Shown here: positions 21,845 to 48,303 of the stretch, piece by piece
Position numbering within the stretch: position 1 is the first letter of the stretch
Layout: the number at the start of each line of letters is the position of its first letter
Source: an uncultured bacterium
Lineage (GTDB): Bacteria > Patescibacteriota > Saccharimonadia > Saccharimonadales > UBA4665
Direction: 5' to 3'
DNA length: 64,000 nt
Assembly (NCBI GenBank): GCA_963805865.1
Contig: CAWDVI010000003.1
Span: 334,131-398,130 of the forward strand
Notes under the pieces: model-generated
Database searches by the model: none
What the model was told of the DNA's origin: nothing
Seen by the model: only the letters and a program-made list of their open reading frames with translations
Position numbers and translations under genes: made by a program

Positions 21845-23311
<1,467 letters not shown>

Positions 23312-24914: not shown

Positions 24915-24924
24915 TTATCGTACT

Positions 24925-25001
24925 TGGTGGAGGCACGGGGACTCGAACCCCGGACCCCCTGCTTGCAAAGCAGGTGCTCTAGCCAACTGAGCTATGCCCC
25001 C
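24925..25001 (-). tRNA. tRNA-Ala (anticodon TGC)
   Basis: Reverse complement reads GGGGGCATAGCTCAGTTGGCTAGAGCACCTGCTTTGCAAGCAGGGGGTCCGGGGTTCGAGTCCCCGTGCCTCCACCA, with G3:U70. Confidence 0.95.
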
Positions 25002-29400: not shown

Positions 29401-32400
29401 ACCTGACGGGCAGCTACCCCAACCCGACCATCGCCAAACTGCAGGGCACCACTCTGACCCTGTCCTCCCTAGCTAGTGGCGATGTCCTGCAATACAACGG
29501 CTCCGCCATAGTGAACGGACATATAACTAACTCCAACCTGACTGCCGGTACCTTCTCCGCCATAACCGGCACTGGGGCACTAACAGCTGGTTCCATCGCC
29601 TCCGGCTTCGGAACTATCTCAACAGCCAATACCATCACCGGCACTACATTGAACGGTACCACCGGCATCAATACCGGAGCCGGTGCCGGCACCCAACGCA
29701 TAGACGCTAGCGGCAACCTGGTCAACATAGGTACCATTACCAGCGGGCTGATCAACGGCCAGACTATCTCCAGTAGTGCTAACTTTACGGGCAGCCTAAC
29801 AGTCCAAGGCGCTGGCGGTATAACGGCCGGCGTAGCCGGCGCCACAGCCGGCAGCCTGACCCTGGCCAATGGTAGCAATAGCCAGCTCAGCCTGCTACAG
29901 GCCAGCGCCCCCACCGGTGCCGGCAACGCCACCTTCCTGTTACCAGGCCTAGCCGGCGGTAGCAGCTACACCCTTTGTACCACCACCACCTGTGCCGCTA
30001 GCGGCAGCGGCGTAACTTCCTTGGACAGCCTGACCGGTGCCCTAACCATCAATAACAGTAGCGGCTCCGGCTCAGCCATCACCATAGATAATGCTGCCGC
30101 TGACGGTACCACTAAAGGTATAGCTACCTTCAACGCTACCAACTTTACGGCCAGCAGTGGAGTCATCAATACCATCCAGAACATAGCTACCACCTCCAGC
30201 CCGGTCTTCGTTTCACCGAACGGTACCACCGGCATCAATACCGGAGCAGGCGCCGGCACCCAACGCATAGACGCTAGCGGCAACCTGGTCAACATAGGTA
30301 CCATTACTACCTCCGGTGCTATCAATACCGCTACCATAAGTGGCGGTACACTCTCCGGCGGTAACGTCTCCGGCGGCACCCTGACAGCTACGGCTGTCAA
30401 CGGCCTGAATGTCTCCAGCACAGCCATAGCCGTCCAGGCAGCCGCCACCGGCCTGACCATAGACGCCGGTACATCCGGCACTGTCTCCATAGGCGCTACT
30501 TCTACAGGAGATATACTGCTAGGCGGCGGCTCCGGCTCTACCGGCTGTACGGTAACTAACTCCAATGGCAACCTGGCTTGTAGCGGTACCATCACCGGCA
30601 CTACCTTGAACGGCACCACCGGCATCAATACCGGAGCCGGCGCCGGCACCAACCGCATAGATTCCTCAGGCAACCTGGTCAACATAGGTACCATCACCAG
30701 TGGCCTGATCAACGGCCAGACTATCTCCAGTAGTGCTAACTTTACGGGGACGCTGGGTGTAGCCACCTCCGTCACCACGCCTCTAGTCAACCTGACCGTA
30801 GGCGCTAACACGGTCAGCATCAGCTCTGCCGCCCAGGCTAATGACGTAGCCCTATCCATACCAGCCGACACTAATACCACCGACACCCTATGTCTCCTAA
30901 CCTTAGGCAACTGCTCAGCCTCCGGCTCCGCCGGCGGCGACCTGACGGGCAGCTACCCCAACCCGACCATCGCCAAACTGCAGGGCACCACTCTGACCCT
31001 GTCCTCCCTAGCTAGTGGCGATGTCCTGCAATACAACGGCTCCGCCATAGTGAACGGACATATAACTAACTCCAACCTGACTGCCGGTACCTTCTCCGCC
31101 ATAACCGGCACTGGGGCACTAACAGCCGGCTCCATAGCCTCCGGCTTTGGCACTATAGCTACTGCTAACACCATCACTGGCACTACCATCAACGGCACCA
31201 CCGGCATCAATACCGGAGCCGGTGCCGGCACCCAGCGCATAGACGCTAGCGGCAACCTGGTCAACATAGGTACCATCACCAGTGGGCTGATCAACGGCCA
31301 GACTATCTCCAGTAGTGCTAACTTTACCGGGACGCTGACCGTCCAAGGCAGTAGCCTGACTGTCGGTACGCCGGGAACCACCATTGGCTCAATCAACCTA
31401 TCTACTAGTGCCAGCAACAGCAGGGAAGTCATTCTCCAAGGTCTTAATCCGTCTGGCACGGGCAATGCCACTATACAGATCCCAACCATCGCGGGCGGCA
31501 CGACTGACGCGGTCTGTTTGGTAGCGCTTGGCAATTGTGCCGGTAGCGGGGGCGGTATTACTGGTAGCGGTACATCAGGCACGCTAGCTGTCTTTACCGG
31601 TACGGGCAGTATTGGCAACTCAGTTATCACGGAATCCGGCAGCGCAGTTAGCGTAGCCGGTACCCTGGCTGTTACCGGTGCCAGCAGCCTAACGCTGGGC
31701 ACGGCAGGACCGGCTGGGAATACAGGCGCCATAGTCTTCAATAACTCTGCTAACGCCAACACCCTGACCCTGCAGTCTGGGGCGACTGGCAGCAACCTGA
31801 CCTTTACTTTGCCAACAGCTGACGGTGCTAATGGCGACTGTTTGATGACTAACAGCAGCGGTGTCTTAAGTTTCCAAGCTTGTACCGGCGGCGCTGGTGG
31901 CGGTGTCACCAGTCTTGATGGTCTTACAGGTATACTGACCATCAATAACAGTAGCGGCTCCGGCTCAGCCATCACCATAGATAATGCCGCCGCTGACGGT
32001 ACCACTAAAGGTATAGCTACCTTCAACGCTACCAACTTTACGGCCAGCAGTGGAGTCATCAATACCATCCAGAACATAGCTACCACCTCCAGCCCGGTCT
32101 TCGTTTCACCGAACGGTACCACCGGCATCAATACCGGAGCAGGCGCCGGCACCCAACGCATAGACGCTAGCGGCAACCTGGTCAACATAGGTACCATTAC
32201 TACCTCCGGTGCTATCAATACCGCTACCATAAGTGGCGGTACACTCTCCGGCGGTAACGTCTCCGGCGGCACCCTGACAGCTACGGCTGTCAACGGCCTG
32301 AATGTCTCCAGCACAGCCATAGCCGTCCAGGCAGCCGCCACCGGCCTGACCATAGACGCCGGTACATCCGGCACTGTCTCCATAGGCGCTACTTCTACAG

Positions 32401-35400
32401 GAGATATACTGCTAGGCGGCGGCTCCGGCTCTACCGGCTGTACGGTAACTAACTCCAATGGCAACCTGGCTTGTAGCGGTACCATCACCGGCACTACCTT
32501 GAACGGCACCACCGGCATCAATACCGGAGCCGGCGCCGGCACCAACCGCATAGATTCCTCAGGCAACCTGGTCAACATAGGTACCATCACCAGTGGCCTG
32601 ATCAACGGCCAGACTATCTCCAGTAGTGCTAACTTTACGGGGACGCTGGGTGTAGCCACCTCCGTCACCACGCCTCTAGTCAACCTGACCGTAGGCGCTA
32701 ACACGGTCAGCATCAGCTCTGCCGCCCAGGCTAATGACGTAGCCCTATCCATACCAGCCGACACTAATACCACCGACACCCTATGTCTCCTAACCTTAGG
32801 CAACTGCTCAGCCTCCGGCTCCGCCGGCGGCGACCTGACGGGCAGCTACCCCAACCCGACCATCGCCAAACTGCAGGGCACCACTCTGACCCTGTCCTCC
32901 CTAGCTAGTGGCGATGTCCTGCAATACAACGGCTCCGCCATAGTGAACGGACATATAACTAACTCCAACCTGACTGCCGGTACCTTCTCCGCCATAACCG
33001 GCACTGGGGCACTAACAGCCGGCTCCATAGCCTCCGGCTTTGGCACTATAGCTACTGCTAACACCATCACTGGCACTACCATCAACGGCACCACCGGCAT
33101 CAATACCGGAGCCGGTGCCGGCACCCAGCGCATAGACGCTAGCGGCAACCTGGTCAACATAGGTACCATTACTACCTCCGGCGCTATCAATACCGCTACC
33201 ATAAGTGGCGGTACACTCTCCGGCGGTAACGTCTCCGGCGGCACCCTGAGCGCCACGGCCGTCAACGGCCTGAATGTCTCCAGCACAGCCATAGCCGTCC
33301 AGGCAGCCGCCACCGGCCTGACCATAGACGCCGGTACATCCGGCACTGTCTCCATAGGCGCTACTTCTACAGGAGATATACTGCTAGGCGGCGGCTCCGG
33401 CTCTACCGGCTGTACGGTAACTAACTCCAATGGCAACCTGGCTTGTAGCGGTACCATCACCGGCACTACCTTGAACGGCACCACCGGCATCAATACCGGA
33501 GCCGGCGCTGGCACCAACCGCATAGATAGCTCAGGCAACCTGGTCAACATAGGTACCATTACTAGTGGCCTGATCAACGGCCAGACTATCTCATCCAGTG
33601 CTAACTTTACGGGGACGGTCGCTATACAAGGCGCTACCGCCCTGACGCTGGGCACAGCAGGACCGGCTGGGAATACAGGCGCCATAGTCTTCCAGAACTC
33701 TGCCGGCACCCACACCGTCACCCTGCAAGGCACGGCCGCCGATACGGCTGCTAATTACACTTTGACGATCCCAACTTTGACAGGGAATGACACGCTCTGC
33801 GTGGCTACCTTGTCCAACTGTACGGCGGCTGGATCGGCAAGTGGGGATCTTACGGGTACGTATCCTGGACCGACCATCGCCAAACTACAGGGCACCACTC
33901 TGACCCTGTCCTCCCTAGCTAGTGGCGACGTCCTGCAATACAACGGCTCAGCCATAGTCAACGGACATATAACTAACTCCAACCTGACTGCCGGTACCTT
34001 CTCCGCCATAACCGGCACTGGGGCACTAACAGCTGGTTCCATCGCCTCCGGCTTCGGTACCATCTCTACCGGCAACAACATAACTACTACCACCACCGTA
34101 CAGGGCGGGGTAGTCAATGCCACCTCCACCCTGGAACTGGGCGGCGCAGACATTAATACGGCCGGCACCCTGAGCAATGTGGCTTACTTGAATGCCACCA
34201 GCAATAACTTCACCAGCACTACTCTCCAGCACAATGGCAATGACATCTGCGACAATTCCAATAACTGTAACTACGCGCCGGCCAGTGGCGGCAACTACCT
34301 GGCCAGGAATGCTGCGGATACCTCATCCGCCGCCGTCACTGCCGCTAACAACCTGTACAGCTTCACCAACTCCAGCTCAGCCACCGCCTCGGGCGTCCTG
34401 AAGCTGGATAACGGCACCAACACCAACTCGGCACTTACAGTAACCGCCAGCGGCAACCCAACCTCCGGCCAGGCGCTGATCTTCGCCAGCAACACCAACG
34501 CCAGCCCCAGCGGCAATCTGATAGACCTGCAATCCGGCTCTAGCCCAACTTCCAAGTTTAGTGTTGATGCCAGCGGCAACCTGACAGCTACCGGCACCAT
34601 CAATGGTGCTACCATCACTTCAACCACCTTCAACACGGCCACCATATCCGGCGGCACCCTCACCGGCGGCAGTCTATCCAGCTCAGCCGTCAACGGTCTA
34701 TCCGTATCCGGCGGCACCATCACTAACCCGACTATTACCGGCACCGTAACCGGCTCCTCTAGTCCTACTATCTCCGGCTTCGGCACCTACAACGGCCAGA
34801 CTATCTCATCCAGCGCTAACTTTACTGGCACATTGGCAGTGCAGGGGGCTAGCACGACGATAGGTACGGCCAGTGGCACTACCGGCACGGTCAAGCTCTA
34901 CAACTCCGGCGGCTCCGGCTCCATCACCCTAACTCCGGCTAATCCAAGCTCTACTGATTACACTCTGACCCTGCCGGCTGAGAATGGCACCATCTGTACT
35001 ACCGGCAGTGTCTGTACTGGTTACGCGCCATCCAGCGGCGGCAACTACATAGCCAAGAACGCCCAAGATACCTCAAGCGCCAGCACCACTGGCAATCTGC
35101 TCGGCTTGACCAACACCAACACCGGCGCGGCCGGCGTTCTGAGCCTGACCAACAGCGGCACCAACTCAGCCCTAAGCATCTTGCAGAGCGGCACCAGTGA
35201 GCCGGGTGCCGGCGAAGCCCTCATAAAGGCCAATAATAATACGACCACGCCAACTGGTAACTTGCTAGACTTGCAGAACAAGGGTACCAGTGAATTCGCC
35301 GTTGACGTCAGCGGCAACAGCACGCAACTTGGCCTGGCGACCACGGTAGGCCTGAACGCCCAGTCCGGCCTGATCCAGGGCACTAACGGCCTGACGGTGA

Positions 35401-38400
35401 GCGGCGCGGCTATCAACCTGAATAACGGTACCATCGCCAGTAATGTCAGCAGCGTAGACCTGCTGAACGCCACTGTTACAACTCTAAACGTCGGCGGGGC
35501 AGTAGGAGCAGGCGGTATCAACCTGGCCGGCGGCTCCAGCTCAACCGGCTGTACCATTGACGGCACTAACGGCAACCTGGTTTGTACCGGCAGTATTACT
35601 AGCGGCGGCGGCTCTGCCGTAGGCTACTGGAGCCGCACCGGCACCACTTTGTCACCGGCTACATCTGGCGACAATGTCACCACCTCTGGCAACATCTCCA
35701 CCAGTGGCTCAGGGACCATTACAAGCGCCTCAACAGTTACCGGTACTACCTTGAACGGTACTACTGGCATCAATACCGGAGCGGGCGCTGGCACCCAGCG
35801 CATAGATAGCAGCGGCAACCTGGTAGCCATAGGTAATATTACCGGCTCCAGTGCTGTAGCTATCGCTGCCGGCAGTACTGCCCAAAACATAACCTTAGAC
35901 GGCTCCACTACCGGCAAGGTACAGATCGGCGCCACCTCCACCGGCGATATTGAACTAGGCGGCGGCTCCGGCTCAACCGGCTGTACGCTCACCAATTCCA
36001 CCGGCGCCTTCGCTTGTACAAGCACCATCAACGGCGCCACCATCTCCGGCGGCACGCTCTCCGGCGGTAACGTATCCGGCGGTACTTTGACAGCAACAGC
36101 AGTCAACAGCCTGAACGTATCTAGTACTGCCATAGCGGTTCAAGCTGCAGCCACGGGCCTGACCATAGATGCCGGCACCAGCGGAACCGTATCAATCGGC
36201 GCCACTTCCACCGGCGACATCCTACTGGGCGGCGGCTCTGGCGCGACTGGTTGTACGGTTGCTAACTCCAGCGGTAATCTAACCTGCACAGGCACCATTA
36301 ACGGCGCCACCCTAAGCGGTGGCACACTGAGCTCAGGCGCCGTGAACTCATTGAATGTATCCGGCACGGCAATCTCCGGCACCGGCGCCCTGACGGTGGA
36401 CGCCAACGGCGCCAACACAGTATCAATAGGCGGTATCTCAACCGGCGATGTCCTACTGGCTGGCGGCTCCGGCGCGAACGGCTGTACAGTAGCCAACTCC
36501 ACAGGCAACCTGACCTGTACCGGCAACATAACTGGAGCCGCTACCGGCACTGTCGGTTACTGGACCCGCTCCGGCACCACACTATCACCAGCCACGGCAG
36601 GCGACGCCATCACCACCACCGGCAACATCTCCACGACTAGCACTGGCACCATCACTTCCGCTGGCCTGCTAACCGGCAGTTTGGGTGCCACCATCTCCGG
36701 CGCGGCCATCAGCCTAAACGCTTCCTCCAACTTCGCCACCAACATTAACACTGGTAGCTCAACCGGCGCGGTCGCCATCGGAAATACAACGGCAGCAGAG
36801 ACAGTTACTATCCAGGGCGGCACCGGTGCTAGCGCCGTAGCTATCTCGACCGGCTCAGCCGGAACCTTGAGCCTTGGTAATGGTGGCGTAGCCGGCACCA
36901 TCCAGATAGGTAATACTTCCGGCGCCGTAGCCCAGACCATAGGAATCGGCAACAACGCCACTGCCAGCTCCACCAGCGCCCTCACCATCGGCAACTTACT
37001 GACTACTTCCACGACCGCCATCCAGGGTGGCACCGGCTCCACAGCCGTAACTATCCAATCCGGTGCCTCCGGCACCATCAGCGTCGGCACTACTTCCCAG
37101 ACTTCCACCCTGAACCTGGGCAACACCAGCGCCTCATCCACCACCCTCATAAACGGTGGCACTGGCGCTAGTGCCATCAGCATCCAAGCCGGCACCTCTG
37201 GCACCATCAGCATCGGCACCACTAACGTCAACACTGTAACGGTTGGCAACACCTCCAACGCCGGCACCCTGACCTTCGGCCGGTCCACCCAGGGTGAGAC
37301 CATCAACATCGGCAATGGTAACGTCGCCTCCGGCAAGACCAACACCATCAACATTGGCGCCACCGCTACGTCCACTGGTAAGGATGTGGTCACTGTAGGC
37401 AGTACTGTGGCCGCCTCCACGCTGACGCTGCAGGGCGGCAACACCTCCTCAGCAGTAAGCATACAGTCCGCGGCCTCCGGCACCATCAGCGTGGGCACCT
37501 CCGGTGTAGCTAACACTGTTCAAATCGGTAACACCAGCGGCGCAGTAGCCCAGACCATCAACATCGGCAACAGCTCCACCGCTAGCTCTACCAACACCGT
37601 AAACATCGGTTCGGCCATAGGCACTAGCCCTATAACTCTGAAGGGTGGCACTAGTGGCATCACTCTCAATCCGGCTGGCGGATCATCGAATAACGGTGTA
37701 TTGGTTAAGCCAACCAGCGACACCACCACCGCCTTCCAGGTGCAGAATGCCAGCGGCACGGCCGCCCTAAATGTAGATACTACCAATATGACTACGACCT
37801 TGCAGGGCGGTGCCGATACGGCCACCATAGGCTCAGAGCTGATAACTACTACGGACTTCACCAATGCAGCCTGGACTAAAACCGGCTGGAGCACCACTAC
37901 GACTACGGCCACACATAACACCGGCAACACCAACCCGCTGTACTCGGCCCAGTTTACGTCCTCTACGACTGCTACATATCAGGTTAAATATACTGTTAGC
38001 GGTAGTCCTGCGCTTGGTTCCACGCTTAGTGTGTTATTCGGGAGTTCCTCTGGAGCGGGTGGATGCACGGTAGCCAGCCATACATTTGAGGGTGCTTCTG
38101 CAAGCAACTTTACCAATACAGTGCTTTTGACATGCAGTTCTTCCACCACAGGTGAAATAAGCTTTGTCCCGTCCAGTGATTTCAATGGAATTATATCGGC
38201 CGTGTCAATTAAAGAAGTAACTTTGAATGCCAGCCCAGCTTTCACAATTAACGACTCTACGGGTGTCGCTTATCTAGAAGTCAGGACTGCCACCGGTAGC
38301 AGTGGCGGTAACCTCTTTATCGGCAATAATTCTGGCCAGTCCGATACCAATGGCTGGGCTAATACAGCAGTTGGATTACACGCACTACAAGATAATACAA

Positions 38401-40304
38401 CAGGCATAGCCAACACGGCGTTTGGCAACGGAGCTTTGCAACACACCACTACCTCCTTGTTTAACACCGCCGTAGGCGCGGTTGCTTTGCAGAGCAATAC
38501 TACAGGAGGATCTAATGTAGCATTAGGCTATAATTCTCTTCATGATAACCTTACAGGTAGCAACAACGCTGGTATAGGTACAAGCGCTTTGCAGCACAAC
38601 ACCACAGGAAGCTACAACACTGCGCTCGGTATTGCTTCCTTGCAGAATAGCACTATAGGGAAACAGAACACGGCCGTAGGCTATAGTTCTTTAAATGGCA
38701 ACACCACAGGAAGCTACAACACTGCGCTTGGCATAAATGCACTATTAACGAATACCACTGGAGCACATAACACAGCTGTCGGCGAGGGGGCTGACGTAGG
38801 CTCTGCCGGTCTATCTAACGCCACTGCCATCGGCACTCACTCTCTGGTGAGCCAAAGCGACAGCCTGGTTTTGGGTTGTGTCAGTGGCACGAATAGCTGT
38901 ACCGCCAACACTAAAGTTGGCATCGACAACGCCGCGCCGGCCCATACCCTGGACGTTGCTGGCGACGGCCTGTTCAAGACCGATTCCACCGCCGCCTTCC
39001 AGATTCAGGATGCTTCTGGCAATACCCATTTCTCGGTCGATACCTCAGGTTCTACATACACTGCGGTCAACGTGGGCGGTTCTGGCACTTCATATGGCGA
39101 GATCAACCTCTTACAAGGCAGCAGTAAGATATGGGGTCTGGCTACTGATGACGGTGGCCCTGGTGGATCCAACGGCCTTAACTTCTATAACTATGGCGCA
39201 GGCACCGTCAACTTCGCGTTGTCAGCCGATGGCGAAGCGTACTTTACCACCGACGATGGTAGCAGCAACGACTCCTATACTGCCCTACAGGTGCGGAATC
39301 ACAGCGATACATCATCCTTCATAGTCAGTACCAAAAACGTGTCTACCGGCTACAATTCGGCCAATGCCATCTTGAAAGTCGCCAAGGATTCCGGCACGAA
39401 CCGCTCAATCAACGCCGCCGGTTCTATCAATGCCTCCGGAGCTGACTACGCGGAGTATATATCTTGGAGTGGCGCCGTGCCTGACCCGGGTTCGGTAGTG
39501 ACCTACAACGGTAGCGCATACGTGGTGTCTTCCCAAGACACCGCCGCGTTCGTCGGTAATGATAACTTTAGCGGCGGCAGTGTGCTGGTAACCTTCGCCG
39601 GCCAGGTGCCCGTTAAGGTAACCGGCACGGTTAACGCCGGCGACCTGTTGGTAGATAACGGCGATGGCACGGCCAAGGCGGTGGATCCGGCCAGCGCCTC
39701 CATAATGCAGTACGTCGGCAAGCTGGGCATCGCCCAGGAGGCTAGCTCGGATAGCGGCGTCAAGCTGGTCAAAGCGGCCATCGGTACCACCAGCTCTAAT
39801 GTAAATTCTGCTCTGGGTCAAACATCAAGTGGCAGTTTCTCGGATATCAACGTCAGCGGCACGGCCACGATTAATAACCTGACGGTTACCGGTTCGGCCA
39901 ATATTGCTGACTTGACGGCTGGCAGCCTACACGTTACTTCCAGCGCGGTCTTTGCCGGTGATATCACCGTGGGCGGGCATATCATCACCTCTGGTGGACA
40001 GCCGACGGCTACGGCCCAGGCTTCGGCGGGCGGCTCGGCTACAGTGGCGGTGGATGGCACGGACACCACCGGTACGATTACGATAACTACCGGTAGCGCG
40101 CCTTCGGCTGGCGACCTGGCCAAGATCCTGTTCTCGCGGACCTACGGTGCCGCGCCGCACATCGTCTTGAGTCCGTCCAATGACAAGGCCGCGGGCTTGC
40201 ACTTCTACAAGGGGTCGACGAGCGCCACGGACTTCATGTTCGACGCCCAGGACGCCCCGGCGGCCAACACCACGTACACCTTTGACTACTTCATCGCGCA
40301 GTAA
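26442..40304 (+). CDS. giant (4,620 aa) N-terminally membrane-anchored, repeat-rich cell-surface fibre/adhesin-like protein with tail-fibre-like C-terminal region
   Basis: Single uninterrupted 13.9-kb ORF. CxxC..CxxC N-terminus, acidic Pro-rich linker, one TM helix (about 27267..27341), then about 4,300 aa of G/T/S/N/A-rich repeats. NTAxG repeats at about 38340..38830 and a GADYAEY motif at about 39430. Confidence 0.9.
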   Translation: MPAKSTKNTKTCQICKTSFQGRKDAKTCSPACRKRLQRNLQAQIAYKAKRLESVLGKELHRIAAALLENHVVHEPLVLADERGAIAVAEPPTEEKQEGALDVEHEEPPASQPVASEPAANEPATTQIPVAAPPSEPTPVEPQIQSTALPREADKRFSPSIVTPEPVAESLESNPVEVTPEPAAAPEPAATPDIQISQAAPIEEQPVPEPASQPEPQASTAAPSAIHLEDMMSSESLEPSAFGEAESMESAADDGAKGKPPKTSGLGGNFSLFRWNKVALMATGLSLLAIVVVSVGGFFLLSRHNTQHLASKNSPGNYSVGDLPLSNVQANPALQVGEANEVTINGQLTVNKTLVLAPSSTPSAPVTGQIYYDKTANAPAYYNGSQFISLAPQQGVTSIGGLGGTVGLGNGLSASGDQIAVSNSLIQQINDASNQTRVISLQGLSGNLALSAGPGISINGLTISATGGGAGVTSLTGTANQVNVSAATGNVTLSLPQSIATTSTPTFGGLTLGSALTAANGGTGAASFTSNGILYGNGAGAIQSTASANNSVLVTSGAGVPSLSQTLPLQVQSNITQTGTLNAGAITAGFGAISTVNNITTSALIQGGSLQVTGGNFTVDGTGNVVANGTVNIEGSGGITIGVAGTTAGSIVIANASNLHTTTLQALASATQDQTITIPVSSATTDQICLLTLGNCFGSGSSVTSIGTQNYISKFTNAAANEIGNSLLYDNGTSVGVGTITPGASYLLDVNGSLNAAGSATIGTGLTVTTGGATITGDILQTGTGAFTTGSGAVTLNGNTSITGSKTLTVGTGATTLGGTLDVTGLSTLTGGATILAPATITGTANINTTGTASTSIGNATGNFSLTSPGLNVSTAGALSGVTGYTQTSGNFSQSGTGTFGTGTGTVSLNGATSVTNGDFTIGVAGSTVGNLNLANATSTRLVILQGLNPSGAGDATIQIPTIAGGTTDTVCLLALANCSASGAAGGDLTGSYPNPTIAKLQGTTLTLSSLASGDVLQYNGSAIVNGHITNSNLTAGTFSAITGTGALTAGSIASGFGTISTANTITGTTLNGTTGINTGAGAGTQRIDASGNLVNIGTITSGLINGQTISSSANFTGSLTVQGAGGITAGVAGATAGSLTLANGSNSQLSLLQASAPTGAGNATFLLPGLAGGSSYTLCTTTTCAASGSGVTSLDSLTGALTINNSSGSGSAITIDNAAADGTTKGIATFNATNFTASSGVINTIQNIATTSSPVFVSPNGTTGINTGAGAGTQRIDASGNLVNIGTITTSGAINTATISGGTLSGGNVSGGTLTATAVNGLNVSSTAIAVQAAATGLTIDAGTSGTVSIGATSTGDILLGGGSGSTGCTVTNSNGNLACSGTITGTTLNGTTGINTGAGAGTNRIDSSGNLVNIGTITSGLINGQTISSSANFTGTLGVATSVTTPLVNLTVGANTVSISSAAQANDVALSIPADTNTTDTLCLLTLGNCSASGSAGGDLTGSYPNPTIAKLQGTTLTLSSLASGDVLQYNGSAIVNGHITNSNLTAGTFSAITGTGALTAGSIASGFGTIATANTITGTTINGTTGINTGAGAGTQRIDASGNLVNIGTITSGLINGQTISSSANFTGTLTVQGSSLTVGTPGTTIGSINLSTSASNSREVILQGLNPSGTGNATIQIPTIAGGTTDAVCLVALGNCAGSGGGITGSGTSGTLAVFTGTGSIGNSVITESGSAVSVAGTLAVTGASSLTLGTAGPAGNTGAIVFNNSANANTLTLQSGATGSNLTFTLPTADGANGDCLMTNSSGVLSFQACTGGAGGGVTSLDGLTGILTINNSSGSGSAITIDNAAADGTTKGIATFNATNFTASSGVINTIQNIATTSSPVFVSPNGTTGINTGAGAGTQRIDASGNLVNIGTITTSGAINTATISGGTLSGGNVSGGTLTATAVNGLNVSSTAIAVQAAATGLTIDAGTSGTVSIGATSTGDILLGGGSGSTGCTVTNSNGNLACSGTITGTTLNGTTGINTGAGAGTNRIDSSGNLVNIGTITSGLINGQTISSSANFTGTLGVATSVTTPLVNLTVGANTVSISSAAQANDVALSIPADTNTTDTLCLLTLGNCSASGSAGGDLTGSYPNPTIAKLQGTTLTLSSLASGDVLQYNGSAIVNGHITNSNLTAGTFSAITGTGALTAGSIASGFGTIATANTITGTTINGTTGINTGAGAGTQRIDASGNLVNIGTITTSGAINTATISGGTLSGGNVSGGTLSATAVNGLNVSSTAIAVQAAATGLTIDAGTSGTVSIGATSTGDILLGGGSGSTGCTVTNSNGNLACSGTITGTTLNGTTGINTGAGAGTNRIDSSGNLVNIGTITSGLINGQTISSSANFTGTVAIQGATALTLGTAGPAGNTGAIVFQNSAGTHTVTLQGTAADTAANYTLTIPTLTGNDTLCVATLSNCTAAGSASGDLTGTYPGPTIAKLQGTTLTLSSLASGDVLQYNGSAIVNGHITNSNLTAGTFSAITGTGALTAGSIASGFGTISTGNNITTTTTVQGGVVNATSTLELGGADINTAGTLSNVAYLNATSNNFTSTTLQHNGNDICDNSNNCNYAPASGGNYLARNAADTSSAAVTAANNLYSFTNSSSATASGVLKLDNGTNTNSALTVTASGNPTSGQALIFASNTNASPSGNLIDLQSGSSPTSKFSVDASGNLTATGTINGATITSTTFNTATISGGTLTGGSLSSSAVNGLSVSGGTITNPTITGTVTGSSSPTISGFGTYNGQTISSSANFTGTLAVQGASTTIGTASGTTGTVKLYNSGGSGSITLTPANPSSTDYTLTLPAENGTICTTGSVCTGYAPSSGGNYIAKNAQDTSSASTTGNLLGLTNTNTGAAGVLSLTNSGTNSALSILQSGTSEPGAGEALIKANNNTTTPTGNLLDLQNKGTSEFAVDVSGNSTQLGLATTVGLNAQSGLIQGTNGLTVSGAAINLNNGTIASNVSSVDLLNATVTTLNVGGAVGAGGINLAGGSSSTGCTIDGTNGNLVCTGSITSGGGSAVGYWSRTGTTLSPATSGDNVTTSGNISTSGSGTITSASTVTGTTLNGTTGINTGAGAGTQRIDSSGNLVAIGNITGSSAVAIAAGSTAQNITLDGSTTGKVQIGATSTGDIELGGGSGSTGCTLTNSTGAFACTSTINGATISGGTLSGGNVSGGTLTATAVNSLNVSSTAIAVQAAATGLTIDAGTSGTVSIGATSTGDILLGGGSGATGCTVANSSGNLTCTGTINGATLSGGTLSSGAVNSLNVSGTAISGTGALTVDANGANTVSIGGISTGDVLLAGGSGANGCTVANSTGNLTCTGNITGAATGTVGYWTRSGTTLSPATAGDAITTTGNISTTSTGTITSAGLLTGSLGATISGAAISLNASSNFATNINTGSSTGAVAIGNTTAAETVTIQGGTGASAVAISTGSAGTLSLGNGGVAGTIQIGNTSGAVAQTIGIGNNATASSTSALTIGNLLTTSTTAIQGGTGSTAVTIQSGASGTISVGTTSQTSTLNLGNTSASSTTLINGGTGASAISIQAGTSGTISIGTTNVNTVTVGNTSNAGTLTFGRSTQGETINIGNGNVASGKTNTINIGATATSTGKDVVTVGSTVAASTLTLQGGNTSSAVSIQSAASGTISVGTSGVANTVQIGNTSGAVAQTINIGNSSTASSTNTVNIGSAIGTSPITLKGGTSGITLNPAGGSSNNGVLVKPTSDTTTAFQVQNASGTAALNVDTTNMTTTLQGGADTATIGSELITTTDFTNAAWTKTGWSTTTTTATHNTGNTNPLYSAQFTSSTTATYQVKYTVSGSPALGSTLSVLFGSSSGAGGCTVASHTFEGASASNFTNTVLLTCSSSTTGEISFVPSSDFNGIISAVSIKEVTLNASPAFTINDSTGVAYLEVRTATGSSGGNLFIGNNSGQSDTNGWANTAVGLHALQDNTTGIANTAFGNGALQHTTTSLFNTAVGAVALQSNTTGGSNVALGYNSLHDNLTGSNNAGIGTSALQHNTTGSYNTALGIASLQNSTIGKQNTAVGYSSLNGNTTGSYNTALGINALLTNTTGAHNTAVGEGADVGSAGLSNATAIGTHSLVSQSDSLVLGCVSGTNSCTANTKVGIDNAAPAHTLDVAGDGLFKTDSTAAFQIQDASGNTHFSVDTSGSTYTAVNVGGSGTSYGEINLLQGSSKIWGLATDDGGPGGSNGLNFYNYGAGTVNFALSADGEAYFTTDDGSSNDSYTALQVRNHSDTSSFIVSTKNVSTGYNSANAILKVAKDSGTNRSINAAGSINASGADYAEYISWSGAVPDPGSVVTYNGSAYVVSSQDTAAFVGNDNFSGGSVLVTFAGQVPVKVTGTVNAGDLLVDNGDGTAKAVDPASASIMQYVGKLGIAQEASSDSGVKLVKAAIGTTSSNVNSALGQTSSGSFSDINVSGTATINNLTVTGSANIADLTAGSLHVTSSAVFAGDITVGGHIITSGGQPTATAQASAGGSATVAVDGTDTTGTITITTGSAPSAGDLAKILFSRTYGAAPHIVLSPSNDKAAGLHFYKGSTSATDFMFDAQDAPAANTTYTFDYFIAQ
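30045..31276 (+). repeat. 1.23-kb intragenic direct repeat, copy A
   Basis: Line-by-line comparison with 31938..33169 (offset exactly 1893 nt, in frame) found one mismatch (30093 t vs 31986 c). Confidence 0.9.
31938..33169 (+). repeat. 1.23-kb intragenic direct repeat, copy B
   Basis: See copy A. The antisense ORFs 29966..30910 and 30953..32803 share an identical ~290-aa N-terminus for the same reason. Confidence 0.9.
40053..40304 (+). repeat. terminal 252-nt segment of the giant gene (R0), founder of the downstream 3'-end cassette family
   Basis: Encodes DGTDTTGTITITTGSAPSAGDLAKILFSRTYGAAPHIVLSPSNDKAAGLHFYKGSTSATDFMFDAQDAPAANTTYTFDYFIAQ*. Confidence 0.9.
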
Positions 40305-40411
40305 AGTAGGGTAGCCCGCGCCAAAACATCTCCTAAACAATAAAATCACCAAAATTAATTTTTATTTAATCTCAGCTTGCTACTATGGAGCCAGAAAGGA
40401 GGTGATACAAT

Positions 40412-40636
40412 ATGTTCATGAGCAAACAACTGAGGTATGATGTCGTGCTTGAGCCCCAGCCGAGCGGCGGTTATACCGTGTACGTGCCCGATTTACCAGG
40501 TTGCGTCAGCGAAGGCCGCACCAAAAGCGAAGCCCTAGCCATGATCCGCGACGCTATCACCGGCTATTTGGCAGTTCGCGCCAAGAAGGGCTGGCGCTTG
40601 CCCAAGGTGGAGCATCAGCAGGTTACTGTAACGTGA
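40412..40636 (+). CDS. hicB: HicB-family antitoxin (UPF0150-type)
   Basis: AAGGAGG RBS; YDVVLEPQPSGGYTVYVPDLPGCVSEGRTKSEALAMIRDAI; stop overlaps the hicA GTG start (GTGA). Confidence 0.8.
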   Translation: MFMSKQLRYDVVLEPQPSGGYTVYVPDLPGCVSEGRTKSEALAMIRDAITGYLAVRAKKGWRLPKVEHQQVTVT

Positions 40637-40851
40637 GTCCGCGCTTACCGCGGCTTACCAGCAAACAATTTATTAAAATCCTCAGAGCTCACGGCTGGGA
40701 AGTAGCCCGCGTCACTGGCAGTCATCACATTATGGCCCACCCCAGAACGAAAGGGATTATCTCCGTTCCACAACACAACCGGACAATGAGTATCGGCACG
40801 CTCAGCCGTTTGGTAAAAGACGCCGGCCTGACGGCCGATGACTTGCACTAG
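40633..40851 (+). CDS. hicA: HicA-family mRNA interferase toxin
   Basis: LTSKQFIKILRAHGWEVARVTGSHHIMAHPRTKGIISVPQHNRTMSIGTLSRLVKDAGL. Confidence 0.8.
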   Translation: MSPRLPRLTSKQFIKILRAHGWEVARVTGSHHIMAHPRTKGIISVPQHNRTMSIGTLSRLVKDAGLTADDLH

Positions 40852-41010
40852 ACCGCCGGCGACCTGGCCAAGATATTGTTCTCTAAGACCTACGACGCGG
40901 TGCCGCACATCGTCTTGAGTCCGTCCAATGGGGCGGCCAGCGGCCTGCACTTCTACAAGGGCAGTACCAGCGCCACGGACTTCATGTTTGACTACTTCAT
41001 CACGCAGTAG
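40852..41010 (+). repeat. 3'-end cassette C1 (5'-truncated, with a 42-nt in-frame internal deletion)
   Basis: Reads (T)AGDLAKILFSKTYDAVPHIVLSPSNGAASGLHFYKGSTSATDFMFDYFITQ*. Begins directly after, and in frame with, the hicA TAG. Confidence 0.9.
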
Positions 41011-41016
41011 CGCATA

Positions 41017-41045
41017 TTGACAGCACCCCTGTCATGGTGTATATT
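41017..41045 (+). promoter_or_regulatory. candidate promoter upstream of NYN gene 1
   Basis: TTGACA, 17 nt, TATATT immediately after cassette C1. Confidence 0.5.
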
Positions 41046-41061
41046 AAAAAGTGCTAAAACC

Positions 41062-41096
41062 TCCCACAGGACCGCAAGGTGTCTGTGGGATTTTTT
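41062..41096 (+). terminator. terminator-like hairpin plus T6 in the leader of NYN gene 1
   Basis: TCCCACAG-13 nt-CTGTGGGA followed by TTTTTT, 16 nt before ATG 41112. Confidence 0.5.
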
Positions 41097-41111
41097 GATA
41101 TACTGTGTGGC

Positions 41112-41684
41112 ATGCCAAAAACCAAAGAACGCTGTGTCATCCTGATTGATGGCAGTAATTTCTTCTTTAAGCTGAAAGATTTACGGCTTCATAATCTGCT
41201 GTCGTTTGACTTCACGGCTTTCAATGGCTACCTGAGCCGCGGCGCCTCTGTTAATGGTGCCACCTATTTTGTCGGCAAGGTGAGGACTGACGGCACCAAA
41301 AAATCCAAACGAATGCAGGCTGATCAGCAGCGGTTGTTCAAACATCTTGCTATGCATGGTTACCGTTACTCGCTCGGTTATTTATTAAAAAATGATGGAG
41401 TTTTTCATGAAAAAGGCGTTGATGTTGAGATAGCCGTGGCTATTTTGGTGACCGCGTACGAAAATTTGGCGGACCGGATCATTCTGGTGTCGTCTGATAC
41501 GGATTTATTGCCAGCCATCAAAAAAGCTCAGCAAAAGGGCAAAACGGTGGAGTACGTCGGCTTCTCGCACAAGCCAAGTTTGGCGCTGGTTGCTCGCTGT
41601 GCCAAAAGCCGCCTGCTTGACCGTGCGGACTTGGAAGGCTTCATCTCAACCCGCAGGCGTAAACCGCCAGCCAGATCACACTAG
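41112..41684 (+). CDS. NYN/LabA-like (PIN-type nuclease) domain protein 1
   Basis: CVILIDGSNFFFKL..HEKGVDVEIAVAIL..DRIILVSSDTDLLPAIKKAQQKGKTVEYVGF. TAG stop abuts cassette C2 in frame. Confidence 0.8.
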   Translation: MPKTKERCVILIDGSNFFFKLKDLRLHNLLSFDFTAFNGYLSRGASVNGATYFVGKVRTDGTKKSKRMQADQQRLFKHLAMHGYRYSLGYLLKNDGVFHEKGVDVEIAVAILVTAYENLADRIILVSSDTDLLPAIKKAQQKGKTVEYVGFSHKPSLALVARCAKSRLLDRADLEGFISTRRRKPPARSH

Positions 41685-41936
41685 GACGGCACGGACACCA
41701 CCGGCACGATTACGATTACCACCGGTAGCGCGCCTACGGCGGGCGATCTGGCCAAGATCCTGTTCTCTAAGACCTACGGCGCGGCGCCGCACGTGGTCTT
41801 GAGTCCGTCTAATGGGGCGGCTTCGGGTCTGCATTTCTACAAGGGGTCGACGAGCGCCACCGACTTCATGTTCGACGCTCAGGATGCGCCTTCGGCCAAT
41901 ACCACGTACACCTTCGATTACTTCATCGCGCAGTAG
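41685..41936 (+). repeat. 3'-end cassette C2 (full length, 252 nt, stop retained)
   Basis: Codon-for-codon alignable with 40053..40304. My hand alignment of 83 codons gives about 22 synonymous-only codon differences and 7 amino-acid changes. Confidence 0.9.
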
Positions 41937-41997
41937 CTTCTTAAACAATTCTTAATCTTGCTTATAATCCCTGTGGTATGACGCTATAATATAGAGT

Positions 41998-42590
41998 ATG
42001 ACTAAAGGTATTTTTGTGTACATTGATTGTGCAAATTTGGACGGCTCGCTTGATAAGCTGGGCTACAAGGGAATTGACTATCCCAGGCTACTTAATTGGC
42101 TCAAAACGAGACGGAAGGCCAGAGAGTTTACTTGTACGCCGGGTACAGCGACGCGCCCCAGAAGGCAAAGTTCAAAAAATTAGAGAAACTGGGCTACATA
42201 GCGAACCTTAAAAAGGTAAAACAATATCCCCCGGAATACAGGACACATAAGTTAAAATGTCCTGGTTGTTCAGCAACAAATAAACACACGGTAAAACGTA
42301 TCGGCAGACGGAAGGCCAATTGTGACTCCGAGCTGACGCTAGACGTCATCAATGACGGCGTACGCAAGAAATATGCCGGCATAATCGTATTCTCTGGCGA
42401 TGGGGATTTCTCGCGTATGTACGAATACGTGGCCGAAGAGCTGGTGAAACCGGTAGTCGTTTTTTCTCCCATGGGTTCAGTTGCAGGCAGCAGAACATCA
42501 ACCAGAGTGAAAGATCTCCATAAAAAAGGAATTATAAGAATAGACGCGCTGGAAGGAATACTCGGTTACAAAGGATACGGCATCAAATGA
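41998..42590 (+). CDS. NYN/LabA-like domain protein 2 (frame switch in an A-run near 42100-42110)
   Basis: ORF 41998..42183 (IFVYIDCANLDG..LLNWLK) continues in ORF 42096..42590 (RVYLYAGY..RKANCDSELTLDVI..IIVFSGDGDF). TATAAT at 41983. Confidence 0.7.
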
Positions 42591-42687
42591 AAAAAGCCTC
42601 CCGGAGGTGGCTTAATTCGAATGCTAAAGCATCATAACATGTAAGAGAGTCTCTTATCAAGTGAGGTTAACCGAAATTTAACAACTC

Positions 42688-42936
42688 GGCACCGACACCA
42701 CCGGTACGATTACGATTACCACCGGTAGCGCGCCTTCGGCGGGTGATTTGGCCAAGATCCTGTTCTCTAAGACCTATGGCGCGGCGCCGCACATCGTGCT
42801 GAGCCCGTCTAATGGGCCGGCTTCTGGCCTGCACTTCTATAAGGGGTCGACTTCGGCCGCCGACTTCATGTTCAACGCCGCTGACGCGCCGGCCGCCAAC
42901 ACGACCTACACCTTCGACTACTTCATCGCCCAGTAG
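42688..42936 (+). repeat. 3'-end cassette C3 (249 nt, stop retained)
   Basis: GTDTTGTITITTGSAPSAGDLAKILFSKTYGAAPHIVLSPSNGPASGLHFYKGSTSAADFMFNAADAPAANTTYTFDYFIAQ*. Confidence 0.9.
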
Positions 42937-42941
42937 CACCA

Positions 42942-42990
42942 GGGGCGCCTGGCGGCGCCCCACAGCGGGCTGGCGCCCGCCGTTATTTAT
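42942..42990 (+). terminator. two tandem GC hairpins with T-rich tail after cassette C3
   Basis: GGGGCGCC-tggc-GGCGCCCC and GCGGGC-tggc-GCCCGC, followed by cgTTATTTATT. Confidence 0.55.
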
Positions 42991-43053
42991 TGAAGTATTA
43001 AACAATCATTAACTTTGCTTACCATCGGTGCGGGCTAATGTTATAGTTGCCGC

Positions 43054-43719
43054 ATGAACACGGCAAAAACACCTATAACTTACGCGTTTATCGACGCCGC
43101 CAACCTGTTTTATGGTTTTGAAAAGCAATACGGCTGGAGCATAGACTATCGCAAACTCCTAGCCTATCTGCGGACAAATTATGGCGTGGCGGAGACTTTT
43201 TATTTTGGCGGTGTCGAAACGCACGGCTATCGGCATGACTATATCCTGGAAGATACCGTAAACCTAGCGGCTCTGGGCAGATATTTAGAGCACCCGCCCA
43301 AAGCCCAAGCCCATGGCGCGACTCTAAACGCGGCAGATTTCGCCCTGCTGTCACGACATATTAAACAGGTAAAGTTTTATCAAAAACTCCAGAATTTTGG
43401 CTATAAACTGGTTTTAAAACCCGTTAAATCATACTTTAGTTCGGGGCGCGGCCGGCACGAGCGTAAGAAAGCTAATTGCGACGTTGACCTGACGCTAGCG
43501 GTATTACGAGAGCAAACGGCTTACCAGCGGGTCTTAATTATATCCGGCGACGGTGATTTTTTGCCGGTTTTAAAGCATGTCAAACGGCAGGGTAAAGACT
43601 TGATCGTTATGTCGCGGGCTTCCCGAACAGCCCGTGAAATCAAGCGCTATGCCGGCCCGGGCCTGCGCGACATAAGCCAGTTGCGTACAAAAATCCAACT
43701 CTCCCAGCTCTCAAAGTAA
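43054..43719 (+). CDS. NYN/LabA-like domain protein 3
   Basis: YAFIDAANLFYG..KKANCDVDLTLAVL..RVLIISGDGDFLPVLKHVKRQGKDLIVMS. Confidence 0.8.
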   Translation: MNTAKTPITYAFIDAANLFYGFEKQYGWSIDYRKLLAYLRTNYGVAETFYFGGVETHGYRHDYILEDTVNLAALGRYLEHPPKAQAHGATLNAADFALLSRHIKQVKFYQKLQNFGYKLVLKPVKSYFSSGRGRHERKKANCDVDLTLAVLREQTAYQRVLIISGDGDFLPVLKHVKRQGKDLIVMSRASRTAREIKRYAGPGLRDISQLRTKIQLSQLSK

Positions 43720-43811
43720 AAAAAATGGGGAGAACCCGTATAGGATGCATCCCCAGTGTAGTGAGTCCATGGTAGCAAATCCTGGTTCGCTGTCAAGAGA
43801 AATTATTCCTT

Positions 43812-44063
43812 GACGGCACGGATACGACCGGTACGATTACGATTACCACCGGGTCTGCGCCTTCGGCGGGTGATCTGGCCAAGATCCTGTTCTCTAAGAC
43901 CTACGGCGCGGCGCCGCACGTCGTGTTGAGCCCGTCTAATGGGGCGGCCAGCGGCTTGCACTTCTACAAGGGGTCGACGAGTGCCACGGACTTCATGTTC
44001 AACGCCCAGGACGCGCCGGCCGCGAACACGACGTACACCTTCGACTACTTCATCGCGCAGTAG
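43812..44063 (+). repeat. 3'-end cassette C4 (full length, 252 nt, stop retained)
   Basis: DGTDTTGTITITTGSAPSAGDLAKILFSKTYGAAPHVVLSPSNGAASGLHFYKGSTSATDFMFNAQDAPAANTTYTFDYFIAQ*. Confidence 0.9.
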
Positions 44064-44074
44064 CGTTGACTACA

Positions 44075-44161
44075 TAACAGGGGATTCGAACCTTGACCAT
44101 GTAAGTTCGGAAGCGTAAAATTCGAGTTGCAACAATGTCCACCGCTAATTGAAGGCGGTAC
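44075..44161 (-). pseudogene. degenerate tRNA-Leu-like remnant (anticodon-arm, variable-arm and T-loop pieces; CAA-type loop)
   Basis: caacaatgtccaccgctaattgaaggcggtac matches 24/32 nt of the intact tRNA-Leu at 44213..44302, with a compensatory stem change. A GGTTCGAATCCCC T-loop piece is present, but no acceptor stem or CCA. Confidence 0.4.
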
Positions 44162-44166
44162 GAAGC

Positions 44167-44199
44167 AATAAACCCCGGCTACGAGAACCGGGGTTTATT
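44167..44199. terminator. 12-bp hairpin downstream of tRNA-Leu
   Basis: AATAAACCCCGG-ctacgagaa-CCGGGGTTTATT. An analogous hairpin follows the second tRNA-Leu at about 60236..60272. Confidence 0.5.
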
Positions 44200-44212
44200 C
44201 ATTGTTGTGGCT

Positions 44213-44302
44213 TGGCGGTGGGGACGAGATTCGAACTCGCGGGACACAACAATGCCCACCACTCCCTGAAAGTGGCACCATAAACCACTCGGTCACCCCA
44301 CC
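44213..44302 (-). tRNA. type II tRNA, read as tRNA-Leu (anticodon CAG)
   Basis: Reverse complement reads GGTGGGGTGACCGAGTGGTTTATGGTGCCACTTTCAGGGAGTGG, then a long variable arm, GAGTTCGAATCTC and CCCCACCGCCA. Confidence 0.75.
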
Positions 44303-44496
44303 GTGGTGACCTGCTTATCAGGCAGGCAAGATTAGCATATTCCTCACCTTAGTCGCACCGAAGCATAAGCGTGGACTTTCGCGATATTTAATTAAAATGT
44401 TTAATTATCTTGCTGTATATTCCACACTTGCGCGGCCCAAAATTTAAGGCCATAATCCCTGACCACGAATAAATAAAACAAAGGGGAGAAATATAT

Positions 44497-44691
44497 ATGA
44501 TTGTCCAAAGGTGCGACAACTGCAAGAAGCCGATTGAAGGACTGGATAACTGCAAACTTGGCAGATCCTATAGCGGCATAGATCTTTGTGAAGCCTGTGC
44601 TGAGCCAATCTATCGGCTAGTAATAGAAAAGGAACTGCTGAGACCCAAGGTTGTAAGGCAATTGAAAGCGGAGCTCGCTAAAAATTCTTAA
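44497..44691 (+). CDS. small zinc-ribbon protein (hypothetical)
   Basis: AAAGGGGAG RBS; CDNCKK..CEAC pairs; 64 aa. Confidence 0.5.
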   Translation: MIVQRCDNCKKPIEGLDNCKLGRSYSGIDLCEACAEPIYRLVIEKELLRPKVVRQLKAELAKNS

Positions 44692-44734
44692 TTAATAGCG
44701 GCCAAAGCGTAGCAACTTTAACATCATTAAATGG

Positions 44735-44763
44735 TTGACCGCCCCTGTTAAGTTTGCTATCAT
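44735..44763 (+). promoter_or_regulatory. candidate promoter of the 23S-5S unit
   Basis: TTGACC, 17 nt, TATCAT about 310 nt upstream of the 23S; same -35 hexamer as the 16S candidate. Confidence 0.45.
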
Positions 44764-45073
44764 ATATCCAAGTGCTTGAGTTTAGGCAGAGACCCGGCAG
44801 TTAAGCCTGAACCACGAGTTTCCAACGTAAACTCAAGCCTCGAGGTTTTTAGATGGGACGGCGCCAGTGTGCGTCACGATCGGATAAGCCCCTTGAGTTT
44901 CGCAATTTAACAATTTAGGTCAAGAAAAGGATTATCTTAAATAATATGGTTTTAAGATGATTCTGAGATAAGCAAATTAGACAAACGGCTATTGGCGATT
45001 TACTTCGGTAAGTACCAATAACCAGTCAATTGCACAAACTGGCTTAAGACTGTCTTCACCGACAATAGTCTTA

Positions 45074-48303
<3,230 letters not shown>

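Follow-up and report, generated by a model that had tools for sequence, protein, structure and literature searches.

How did the end of one giant gene come to lie five times on the same chromosome, with unrelated genes between the copies? The question is raised by a 64,000-nt stretch of DNA, here called the window, from an uncultured bacterium of the Saccharimonadales (UBA4665; assembly GCA_963805865.1, contig CAWDVI010000003.1, positions 334,131 to 398,130), in which the open reading frame (ORF) of a giant surface fibre is followed by an array of further copies of its own 3' end, termed tails, interleaved with a hicB-hicA toxin-antitoxin pair and three genes for NYN-domain proteins. Bacteria of the candidate phyla radiation (CPR) have tiny genomes with few recognisable mobile elements, and their acquisition of accessory and defence genes is poorly understood. 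The tail array was confirmed as real and unusual. We favour, at a probability of about 0.6, an origin by four or more separate insertion events at the giant gene's 3' end, each consisting of a cassette and a replacement gene end and each placed at a reused breakpoint. Every insertion would have brought an accessory cassette (HicBA or a LabA/DUF88-type NYN nuclease, a HEC-09-like defence candidate) together with a foreign yet functional copy of the last 83 codons, which would have preserved the fibre gene and left its earlier end behind, further downstream, as an untranslated orphan.

Tail copies and their cargo

The expressed tail (R0) and four orphan copies (C1 to C4) all lie on the plus strand, keep the tail frame open and terminate with FDYFI(A/T)Q and a stop codon (Table 1). 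The four full copies of about 252-253 nt, R0 included, are 82-88% identical in pairwise nucleotide comparison (BLAST E 1e-70 to 1e-88), the range across all copies being 78-88%, and the tails are about 90% identical in protein, with few and conservative differences. C1 carries an extra 42-nt in-frame internal deletion between short TTYGAC repeats. The starts of C2, C3 and C4 agree within 0-3 nt and fall at the D/G-G-T-D-T-T codons. All copies are direct, inverted repeats occur at chance level only, and no further tail copies were found within the 64-kb window. Each orphan is preceded by in-frame stops and has no obvious translation route.

The units of the array measure 0.75-1.1 kb and hold one or two genes each, which were identified with Pfam. 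NYN1, NYN2 and NYN3 are mutually 25-35% identical, and PADLOC matches the NYN proteins to HEC-09, a candidate defence gene, and to a LabA-like NYN nuclease component. Homologues of NYN1 that are 74-83% identical are located among methylases, PLD nucleases, Fic proteins, OLD-like ATPases and serine recombinases, and one close homologue (L179) is flanked by a 68-nt repeat. Overall, the cargo has a mobile, defence-like character. Neither the ORFs of the window nor the cassettes were found to include an integrase, a transposase or a reverse transcriptase.

Much of this had been anticipated in the initial annotation, made by a model from the DNA letters. Repeat finding, alignment and a frame check bore out its five-copy, same-strand array with each copy in frame and closed by a stop, and likewise the shared start codon of C2, C3 and C4. 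Pfam recovered the same cargo, hicB-hicA, NYN1, a frameshifted NYN2 and NYN3; the identities given above agree with its view that the NYN proteins are too divergent for recent tandem duplicates, and its statement that no integrase or transposase is visible holds for the 64 kb.

Table 1. Features of the window and duplications flanking NYN genes at surveyed loci
Feature	Position	Strand	Description
Giant ORF	26442..40304	+	13.9 kb, 4620 aa
R0	40053..40304	+	expressed last 83 codons and TAA; a predicted small all-beta domain begins here
hicB	40412-40636	+	Pfam HicB_lk_antitox 9e-11
hicA	40633-40851	+	Pfam HicA_toxin 7e-19; toxin-antitoxin pair with hicB
C1	40852..41010	+	orphan tail copy from codon 18, 5' end missing
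NYN1 leader	41017..41096	+	near-consensus promoter TTGACA-17-TATATT (41017-41045), then terminator-like hairpin (41063-41096)
NYN1	41112..41684	+	190 aa; Pfam NYN 2e-17; PADLOC HEC-09 2e-15
C2	41685..41936	+	full orphan tail copy
Promoter/5'UTR-like segment	41941..41988	+	3' of C2; homologous to 42998-43045, 3' of C3
NYN2	41998..42590	+	frameshifted; N-terminal part 41998-42115, remainder in ORF 42096-42590
C3	42685..42936	+	full orphan tail copy, homology from 42687
NYN3	43054..43719	+	221 aa; Pfam NYN 3e-17
C4	43812..44063	+	last orphan tail copy, adjoins the native downstream flank
Small Zn-ribbon ORF	44497..44691	+	conserved native neighbour between tail and 23S; homologue L004 11039-11230
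Locus L092			last 50 codons of an hsdM-like gene duplicated; orphan copy abuts the next gene; architecture exactly as in the window
Locus L153	4900-4944 / 5698-5742		first 45 nt (15 codons) of ychF duplicated
Locus L089	4785-4877 / 5838-5932		upstream (promoter) region of ychF duplicated
Locus L169			first 110 nt of an ORF duplicated
Locus L156			3' end of a convergent gene duplicated
Loci L125, L157, L167			terminator-plus-promoter segments duplicated

NYN1 is 11-13 aa longer than its 177-181-aa homologues, and its ORF reads into the junction up to a TAG that abuts C2; the over-long C-terminal end shows that the C2 junction was cut at the very end of the NYN1 gene. A leader of about 75-85 nt is conserved in the NYN1 family (L178 5917-6000, L179 4499-4595, L180 5918-6000), nucleotide similarity between NYN1 and these three loci beginning about 75 nt upstream of the ATG, and its hairpin may be an attenuator or a regulatory RNA. 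A GC-rich hairpin (42937-42985) is located directly 3' of C3. The frameshift of NYN2 lies at an (AG)3 run near 42119-42124; in a short-read contig covering the gene (L003) NYN2 is also frameshifted, in another indel state. As a separate observation, the TAG stops of hicA (40849-40851) and NYN1 (41682-41684) abut C1 and C2 with zero spacer and in frame, so that read-through of the stop would fuse a tail domain onto either protein. For the frame the chance expectation is 1 in 9, and the abutment may be such a coincidence or a trace of junction formation.

Could the array be an artefact, with variant gene ends of different strains concatenated by the assembler? The genome was assembled from a metagenome, and the repeats are long enough to break short-read assemblies; L003 itself ends inside repeats. 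However, L003, a Logan contig of run ERR11594398 that is 99.9% identical to window positions 41765-42933, independently joins part of C2, NYN2 and C3. Furthermore, unique flanking sequence is present at each junction and the same architecture recurs in many unrelated assemblies, which makes an artefact extremely unlikely. No independent contigs are on record for hicB, NYN1 and NYN3.

Divergence of the copies and formation of the junctions

The manner in which the tails diverged is the key to their origin. In pairwise comparison the ratio of non-synonymous to synonymous divergence (dN/dS) is 0.08-0.24 at dS 0.36-1.1, orphan-orphan pairs included (typically about 0.1 at about 0.5), and for orphan-orphan pairs it is 0.08-0.22; C2 and C4, for example, are separated by 23.5 synonymous and 7.5 non-synonymous differences. 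Neutral divergence of the copies was rejected with binomial p values of 1e-8 to 2e-4. Since the orphans are untranslated, low dN/dS between them indicates that they diverged as working gene ends and not in place. They were functional gene ends, under purifying selection on the protein, for most of their divergence and were displaced recently. The low identity among the NYN proteins indicates in turn that the cargo is far older than the tails.

These results bear on a simpler origin, in which a unit of tail and NYN gene was tandemly duplicated in place and later diverged while gene conversion kept the tails alike. It would explain why all the window tails cluster, why a promoter segment and a short NYN motif are common to units 2 and 3, and why some reticulate site patterns were found by mosaic analysis of the tails. 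Yet neutral divergence in place cannot be reconciled with orphan pairs that show a dN/dS of about 0.1 at dS of about 0.5. The NYN proteins, just 25-35% identical, and their 3' flanks, which cannot be aligned, far exceed the tails in age, and hicBA is an unrelated cargo. Tandem duplication is therefore disfavoured and regarded as very unlikely.

The flanks of the copies are informative about what moved. The 5' flanks leading from C2 to NYN2 and from C3 to NYN3 are homologous (48 nt at 71%, a score reached by 0/1000 shuffles), whereas no relationship is seen among the stretches that separate an NYN stop from the following tail (p=0.5). The shared flanks 3' of the tail show that a tail travels with the 5' side of its downstream cargo; the unrelated flanks 3' of the cargo show that three junctions between a cargo 3' side and a tail start were formed independently, yet at the same position. 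This shared boundary is not a limit of conservation, because homology to orthologues extends 80-110 nt upstream of 40053. Microhomology at the junctions amounts to 0-1 nt, and 15 repeat pairs, compared at their boundaries, revealed no shared motif or microhomology. A constant tail-side breakpoint, unrelated cargo-side ends and 0-1 nt of microhomology are best fitted by a recurrent double-strand break at the tail start.

Based on these findings, a model of serial insertion is proposed, in which a double-strand break at the tail start (40053) would be repaired by copying or capturing a segment of replacement tail, promoter and cargo from a diverged relative. The donor DNA would enter probably via natural transformation, a process already exploited for genetic work in Saccharibacteria; its gene side would be joined through homology or a shared cut, and its other side by end-joining to the recurrent break. 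The NYN nuclease itself might promote the break in the manner of a homing endonuclease. While the serial replacement of the gene end and its association with NYN genes are taken as established, the way in which the ends were joined is something that we infer. The same product would be expected from Campbell-type integration of circularised fragments or from a recombinase acting in trans, two routes for which the cassette side offers no supporting conserved sites.

A known process offers a precedent for such joining. In homology-facilitated illegitimate recombination and insertion-duplication, which operate in naturally transformable bacteria, a single stretch of homology anchors the foreign DNA, whose other end is joined illegitimately; circular or one-sided donors duplicate the anchor. 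On the model proposed here, the array would have the single homologous anchor, the illegitimate other end and the duplication of the anchor in common with this process. We know of no case in which the process reuses a single breakpoint or is tied to a gene family.

Small hairpins were observed to straddle the junctions of NYN3 with C4 (43789-43818, GCTGTCAAG...CTTGACGGC) and of NYN2 with C3 (42669-42690), with the first tail bases as the 3' arm; the folding z-scores of the flanks are -2.6 and -2.0, respectively.

Comparison of orthologous loci for single units, which the initial annotation had put forward as a check, revealed no array in relatives and a separate NYN insertion in one of them. 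In L002, L005 and L008 the orthologous giant gene is followed by 0.4-0.7 kb and then the 23S gene, and in L006 6 kb of other genes lie between the two. In L004, a different species, the order after the tail is an NYN gene (minus strand), a 74-82-nt tail remnant (91% identical to the expressed copy), the Zn-ribbon ORF and the 23S gene. With its NYN gene and tail remnant, L004 records an independent insertion of the same type at this gene. The expressed tail of L004 ends in FDYSIAQ (10199-10207), and its displaced remnant retains the family-typical FDYFIAQ.

Duplicated gene ends around NYN genes in other genomes

Is the connection between NYN genes and duplicated gene ends peculiar to this fibre locus? 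The NYN3 family is CPR-wide, with 2837 homologues at about 50% identity, and 80 metagenomic and 3 genomic loci of the family were surveyed for same-strand repeats of at least 35 nt flanking the NYN ORF. Such flanking direct repeats, of 44-158 nt and 78-99% identity, were found in 13 of the 58 testable loci (12/57 when unique). Shifted positions gave 0/142, other ORFs of 150-300 aa in the same loci 6/132 (Fisher p=9e-4), and ORFs in 1.2 Mb of Saccharibacteria loci 5/406 (p about 1e-8), one of the five being the NYN gene of L004; the direct repeats in that 1.2 Mb are nearly all internal repeats of giant genes or rRNA insertions. The survey repeats are locus-specific host sequence, no motif is common to the target sequences, and where the repeats are coding their pN/pS is 0.15-0.24. 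The segments duplicated at individual loci are listed in Table 1. Short arrays in which one local segment occurs three times were also seen (L157 106-2569, L167 3140-4988, L169 1344-3870), the NYN gene being set apart there from NUDIX, Bro-N or AbiEii-toxin genes.

The proposal of the initial annotation that serial events had each supplied a replacement 3' end can now be assessed. Its core stood, on the strength of dN/dS, NYN divergence, flank homology, the relatives, and L092 and other loci elsewhere. Its order of arrival, with R0 and hicBA last, is not demonstrable, as C1 is the most decayed copy and the NDKAAG motif of R0 is the common state in relatives.

NYN genes themselves show signs of mobility. 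In six or more divergent CPR genomes ychF is immediately preceded by an NYN gene, and NYN locations are otherwise variable between genomes. Compared between genomes with this arrangement, the NYN proteins share 57-76% identity and the neighbouring YchF proteins 45-67%, and such greater similarity of the NYN protein is a signature of horizontal movement. A patchy distribution, the same target in divergent hosts and a nuclease more similar than the host gene, all of which mark homing-type elements, were thus found together. It is tentatively suggested that NYN genes (LabA/DUF88-type, PIN-like) are previously unrecognised homing-like selfish or defence cassettes of CPR/Patescibacteria, which enter host gene ends carrying a replacement end, with the fibre array as a multi-hit example.

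A more specific version of serial insertion would make the NYN cassettes autonomous homing-type selfish elements, whose NYN nuclease cuts the gene end while repair from an NYN-bearing allele copies both cassette and gene end, hicBA and other cargo hitch-hiking. The strong association of target duplications with NYN genes, the nuclease fold with intact acidic motifs, the NYN protein more conserved than its neighbour YchF and its recurrence upstream of ychF all point this way, as do the sharp and reused breakpoint at 40053, the homing-endonuclease analogue in mitochondria described below and a degenerate NYN2 that would suit the life cycle of a homing endonuclease. The NYN protein may thus make the break, an idea favoured by the statistics and by the fold. 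It is weakened because one and the same DNA site would hardly be recognised by three NYN proteins that share 25-35% identity, because the hicBA unit has no NYN gene and because NYN domains are known as RNases. Moreover, to our knowledge no NYN protein is a site-specific DNA cutter, and target duplication is not a product of classical homing. Nothing linking NYN domains to homing or mobile cassettes was found in the literature, and none of the homing-endonuclease families LAGLIDADG, GIY-YIG, HNH, His-Cys, PD-(D/E)XK and EDxHD was detected in the cargo, for which Pfam gives NYN, HicA and HicB only. Autonomous homing is accordingly judged unlikely.

The statement of the initial annotation that it knew of no described system of this kind was too strong, analogues being found among C-terminal duplications of fungal mitochondria, which concern homing endonucleases, and among integrative elements that restore a 3' end. 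In the mitochondria of Endoconidiophora resinifera, GIY-YIG or LAGLIDADG ORFs lie behind atp6 and cob, and beyond them stands a displaced duplicate of the C-terminal part of the respective gene (PMC6279837). As in the window, nuclease ORFs come to lie between the host gene and a displaced partial C-terminal copy, and several accumulate, some of them degenerate (PMC6279837). The fungal enzymes, however, are GIY-YIG/LAGLIDADG DNA endonucleases in organelles, whereas here NYN proteins (PIN-like, putative cutters) and HicBA are found in a bacterial chromosome with up to four stacked ends.

The second analogue leads to a different mechanism. Direct repeats that equal the target 3' end, with the upstream copy completing the gene, were found in the window and also at the hsdM-like gene of L092. 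Integrative elements that restore the 3' end of their target are known as tRNA/tmRNA islands and, in icd, as phage 21 and e14, and they undergo tandem accretion. There, too, an incoming and slightly different end keeps the target intact, the old end becomes a direct repeat, and repeated integration produces arrays; those elements, however, encode or depend on a known integrase and span kb to hundreds of kb, whereas the units here are 0.75-1.1 kb, with no integrase visible and no conserved cassette-side site. The cassettes could accordingly be non-autonomous site-specific integrative units (compare integron cassettes, IMEX and CIMEs), mobilised by a recombinase elsewhere in the genome with the crossover at the tail start and the 252-nt end in an attP-like region. 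The constant 5' boundary of C2, C3 and C4, growth of the array at one site, a toxin-antitoxin module in the array as in chromosomal integrons, and the serine recombinases near close NYN1 homologues agree with this idea. It is nevertheless quite unlikely: no recombinase lies within the 64 kb, the cassette side of the junctions has neither conserved sequence nor hairpin, the tail DNA folds unlike attC, the targets at other loci have no common motif, and the boundaries differ in C1 and in the L004 remnant.

Other systems that build arrays of gene ends or cassettes were tried and set aside. The window resembles integron arrays, and clusters of attC sites lacking an integrase (CALINs), in its small, mostly single-gene cassettes of one orientation, its recurring separator and its toxin-antitoxin and defence cargo. 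Unlike theirs, the separator here is a protein-coding end under protein-level constraint and not an attC hairpin, and intI and attI are missing from the window. Folding of the tail halves as DNA on both strands gave z-scores of -1.3 to +2.2, with no hairpin signal, Rfam had no match in 40250-45100 other than tRNA-Leu, and together with the lack of an integrase in the window these results ruled out an integron cassette array. Polymorphic toxin loci, in which orphan C-terminal cassettes occur, likewise combine a giant surface or secreted protein gene with a same-strand array of displaced or alternative 3' modules (PMC3482391). They hold variable C-terminal toxins with immunity genes, whereas here the C-terminus is conserved (about 90% in amino acids) and variation resides in separate genes, each with a start of its own; conserved tails, a dN/dS of 0.1 and separate cargo genes ruled out such a system. 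Silent-cassette antigenic variation (pilS-like) was excluded by the dN/dS of about 0.1 and the few conservative differences. The variable tail sites comprise all bases and are mostly third codon positions; a diversity-generating retroelement was excluded since there is no adenine bias and no reverse transcriptase, only an RNase H-like RVT_3 domain at 6701-7393 being present. A shufflon or invertible fibre-tip cassettes were excluded because the copies are all direct and inverted repeats are at chance level.

Several observations weigh against serial insertion and have to be set beside the evidence for it. The five window tails form one clade against the tails of other sampled species, which implies that the donors were unsampled close lineages or paralogues and constitutes the main gap in the argument; neither a donor genome nor within-species presence/absence polymorphism was found, which leaves dN/dS as the one line of evidence for a foreign origin of the tails. 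Decay does not track position, C1 being the most eroded copy and the distal C4 intact, and L003 supports one pair of junctions only, the other array junctions having no independent read support. As regards the NYN genes, 45 of the 57 loci have no detectable duplication, flanking repeats occur also around other genes (AbiEii, Bro-N, Cas2/PaaX-like, NTPase), several of which are neighbours in the same arrays, and the sharing of one breakpoint by three divergent NYN proteins, the unit without an NYN gene and the reputation of NYN domains as RNases count here as well.

There is a substantial chance that CPR bacteria harbour a new class of nuclease-associated mobile cassette, of which the locus is a sign. 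The fibre locus and 12 further loci point to a recombinase-free route of acquisition, in which single-gene cassettes land in gene ends, bring a substitute end that keeps the host gene whole and leave datable 'fossil' ends behind. For the giant fibre, the displaced ends would be a record of repeated replacement of its distal tip. If NYN proteins drive the process, a new enzyme family would be added to the homing endonucleases and a function would be assigned to bacterial NYN/LabA proteins. The survey also yields a simple sequence signature by which such cassettes can be found in metagenomes.

The fibre gene, its tail domain and the surrounding chromosome

The giant ORF encodes an N-terminal Zn-ribbon-like segment and a transmembrane helix, followed by long repeats, a tailspike-like region and the 83-aa C-terminal tail domain; near the C-terminus Pfam gives a weak Peptidase_G2/IMC match. 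In its interior (29200-36600), near-identical long tandem repeats form blocks of about 1-1.9 kb (e.g. around 30498, 32391 and 33363), which are a likely source of length variation and of assembly difficulty. Among surface proteins of Saccharibacteria the tail is widespread as a C-terminal module, with 93 confirmed stretches in species-representative genomes, and in L001 three genes end with it. A structure model of moderate confidence (pLDDT 60.6) predicts an all-beta domain whose ordered part begins from about DGTDTT. Foldseek searches with this model gave nothing significant, the best matches being phage fibre tips and H-type lectins at E >= 0.17, and the C-terminal 534 aa had no sequence match in the PDB. 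A phage origin was rejected, as the tail and the NYN3 family each match just 3 viral contigs among 2.9 million contigs. The giant fibre probably contacts the host cell.

The window is an ordinary Saccharibacteria chromosome, with miaA, gyrBA, infC-rpmI, infB, rpsA, fmt, priA and ftsA present. The giant gene and the array are positioned between the 16S gene (21846-23309) and the 23S gene (45083-48299), and the giant gene lies upstream of the 23S gene also in L002, L004, L005, L006 and L008. The rRNA operon is split, 16S and 23S-5S (to 48543) being 21.8 kb apart, and tRNA-Ile and tRNA-Ala (24838-25001), usually spacer genes, are on the opposite strand from the rRNA. The 23S gene exceeds the Rfam model in length by about 290 nt and contains an insert of about 220 nt (46927-47146) at a point where L004, L005 and L008 have 7-62 nt; no intron or other Rfam family matched the insert. 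C4 is directly followed by a fragment resembling a tRNA, with a GGTTCGAATCCCC T-arm and a stretch similar to an anticodon arm, which neither ARAGORN nor Rfam calls. Two tRNA-Leu(CAG) genes, about 76% identical, are present in the window (entry coordinates 44075-44165, 44213-44302 and 60282-60373, all on the minus strand). Finally, the ORF at 6701-7393 encodes a pterin-4a-carbinolamine dehydratase domain fused to the RNase H-like (RVT_3) domain.

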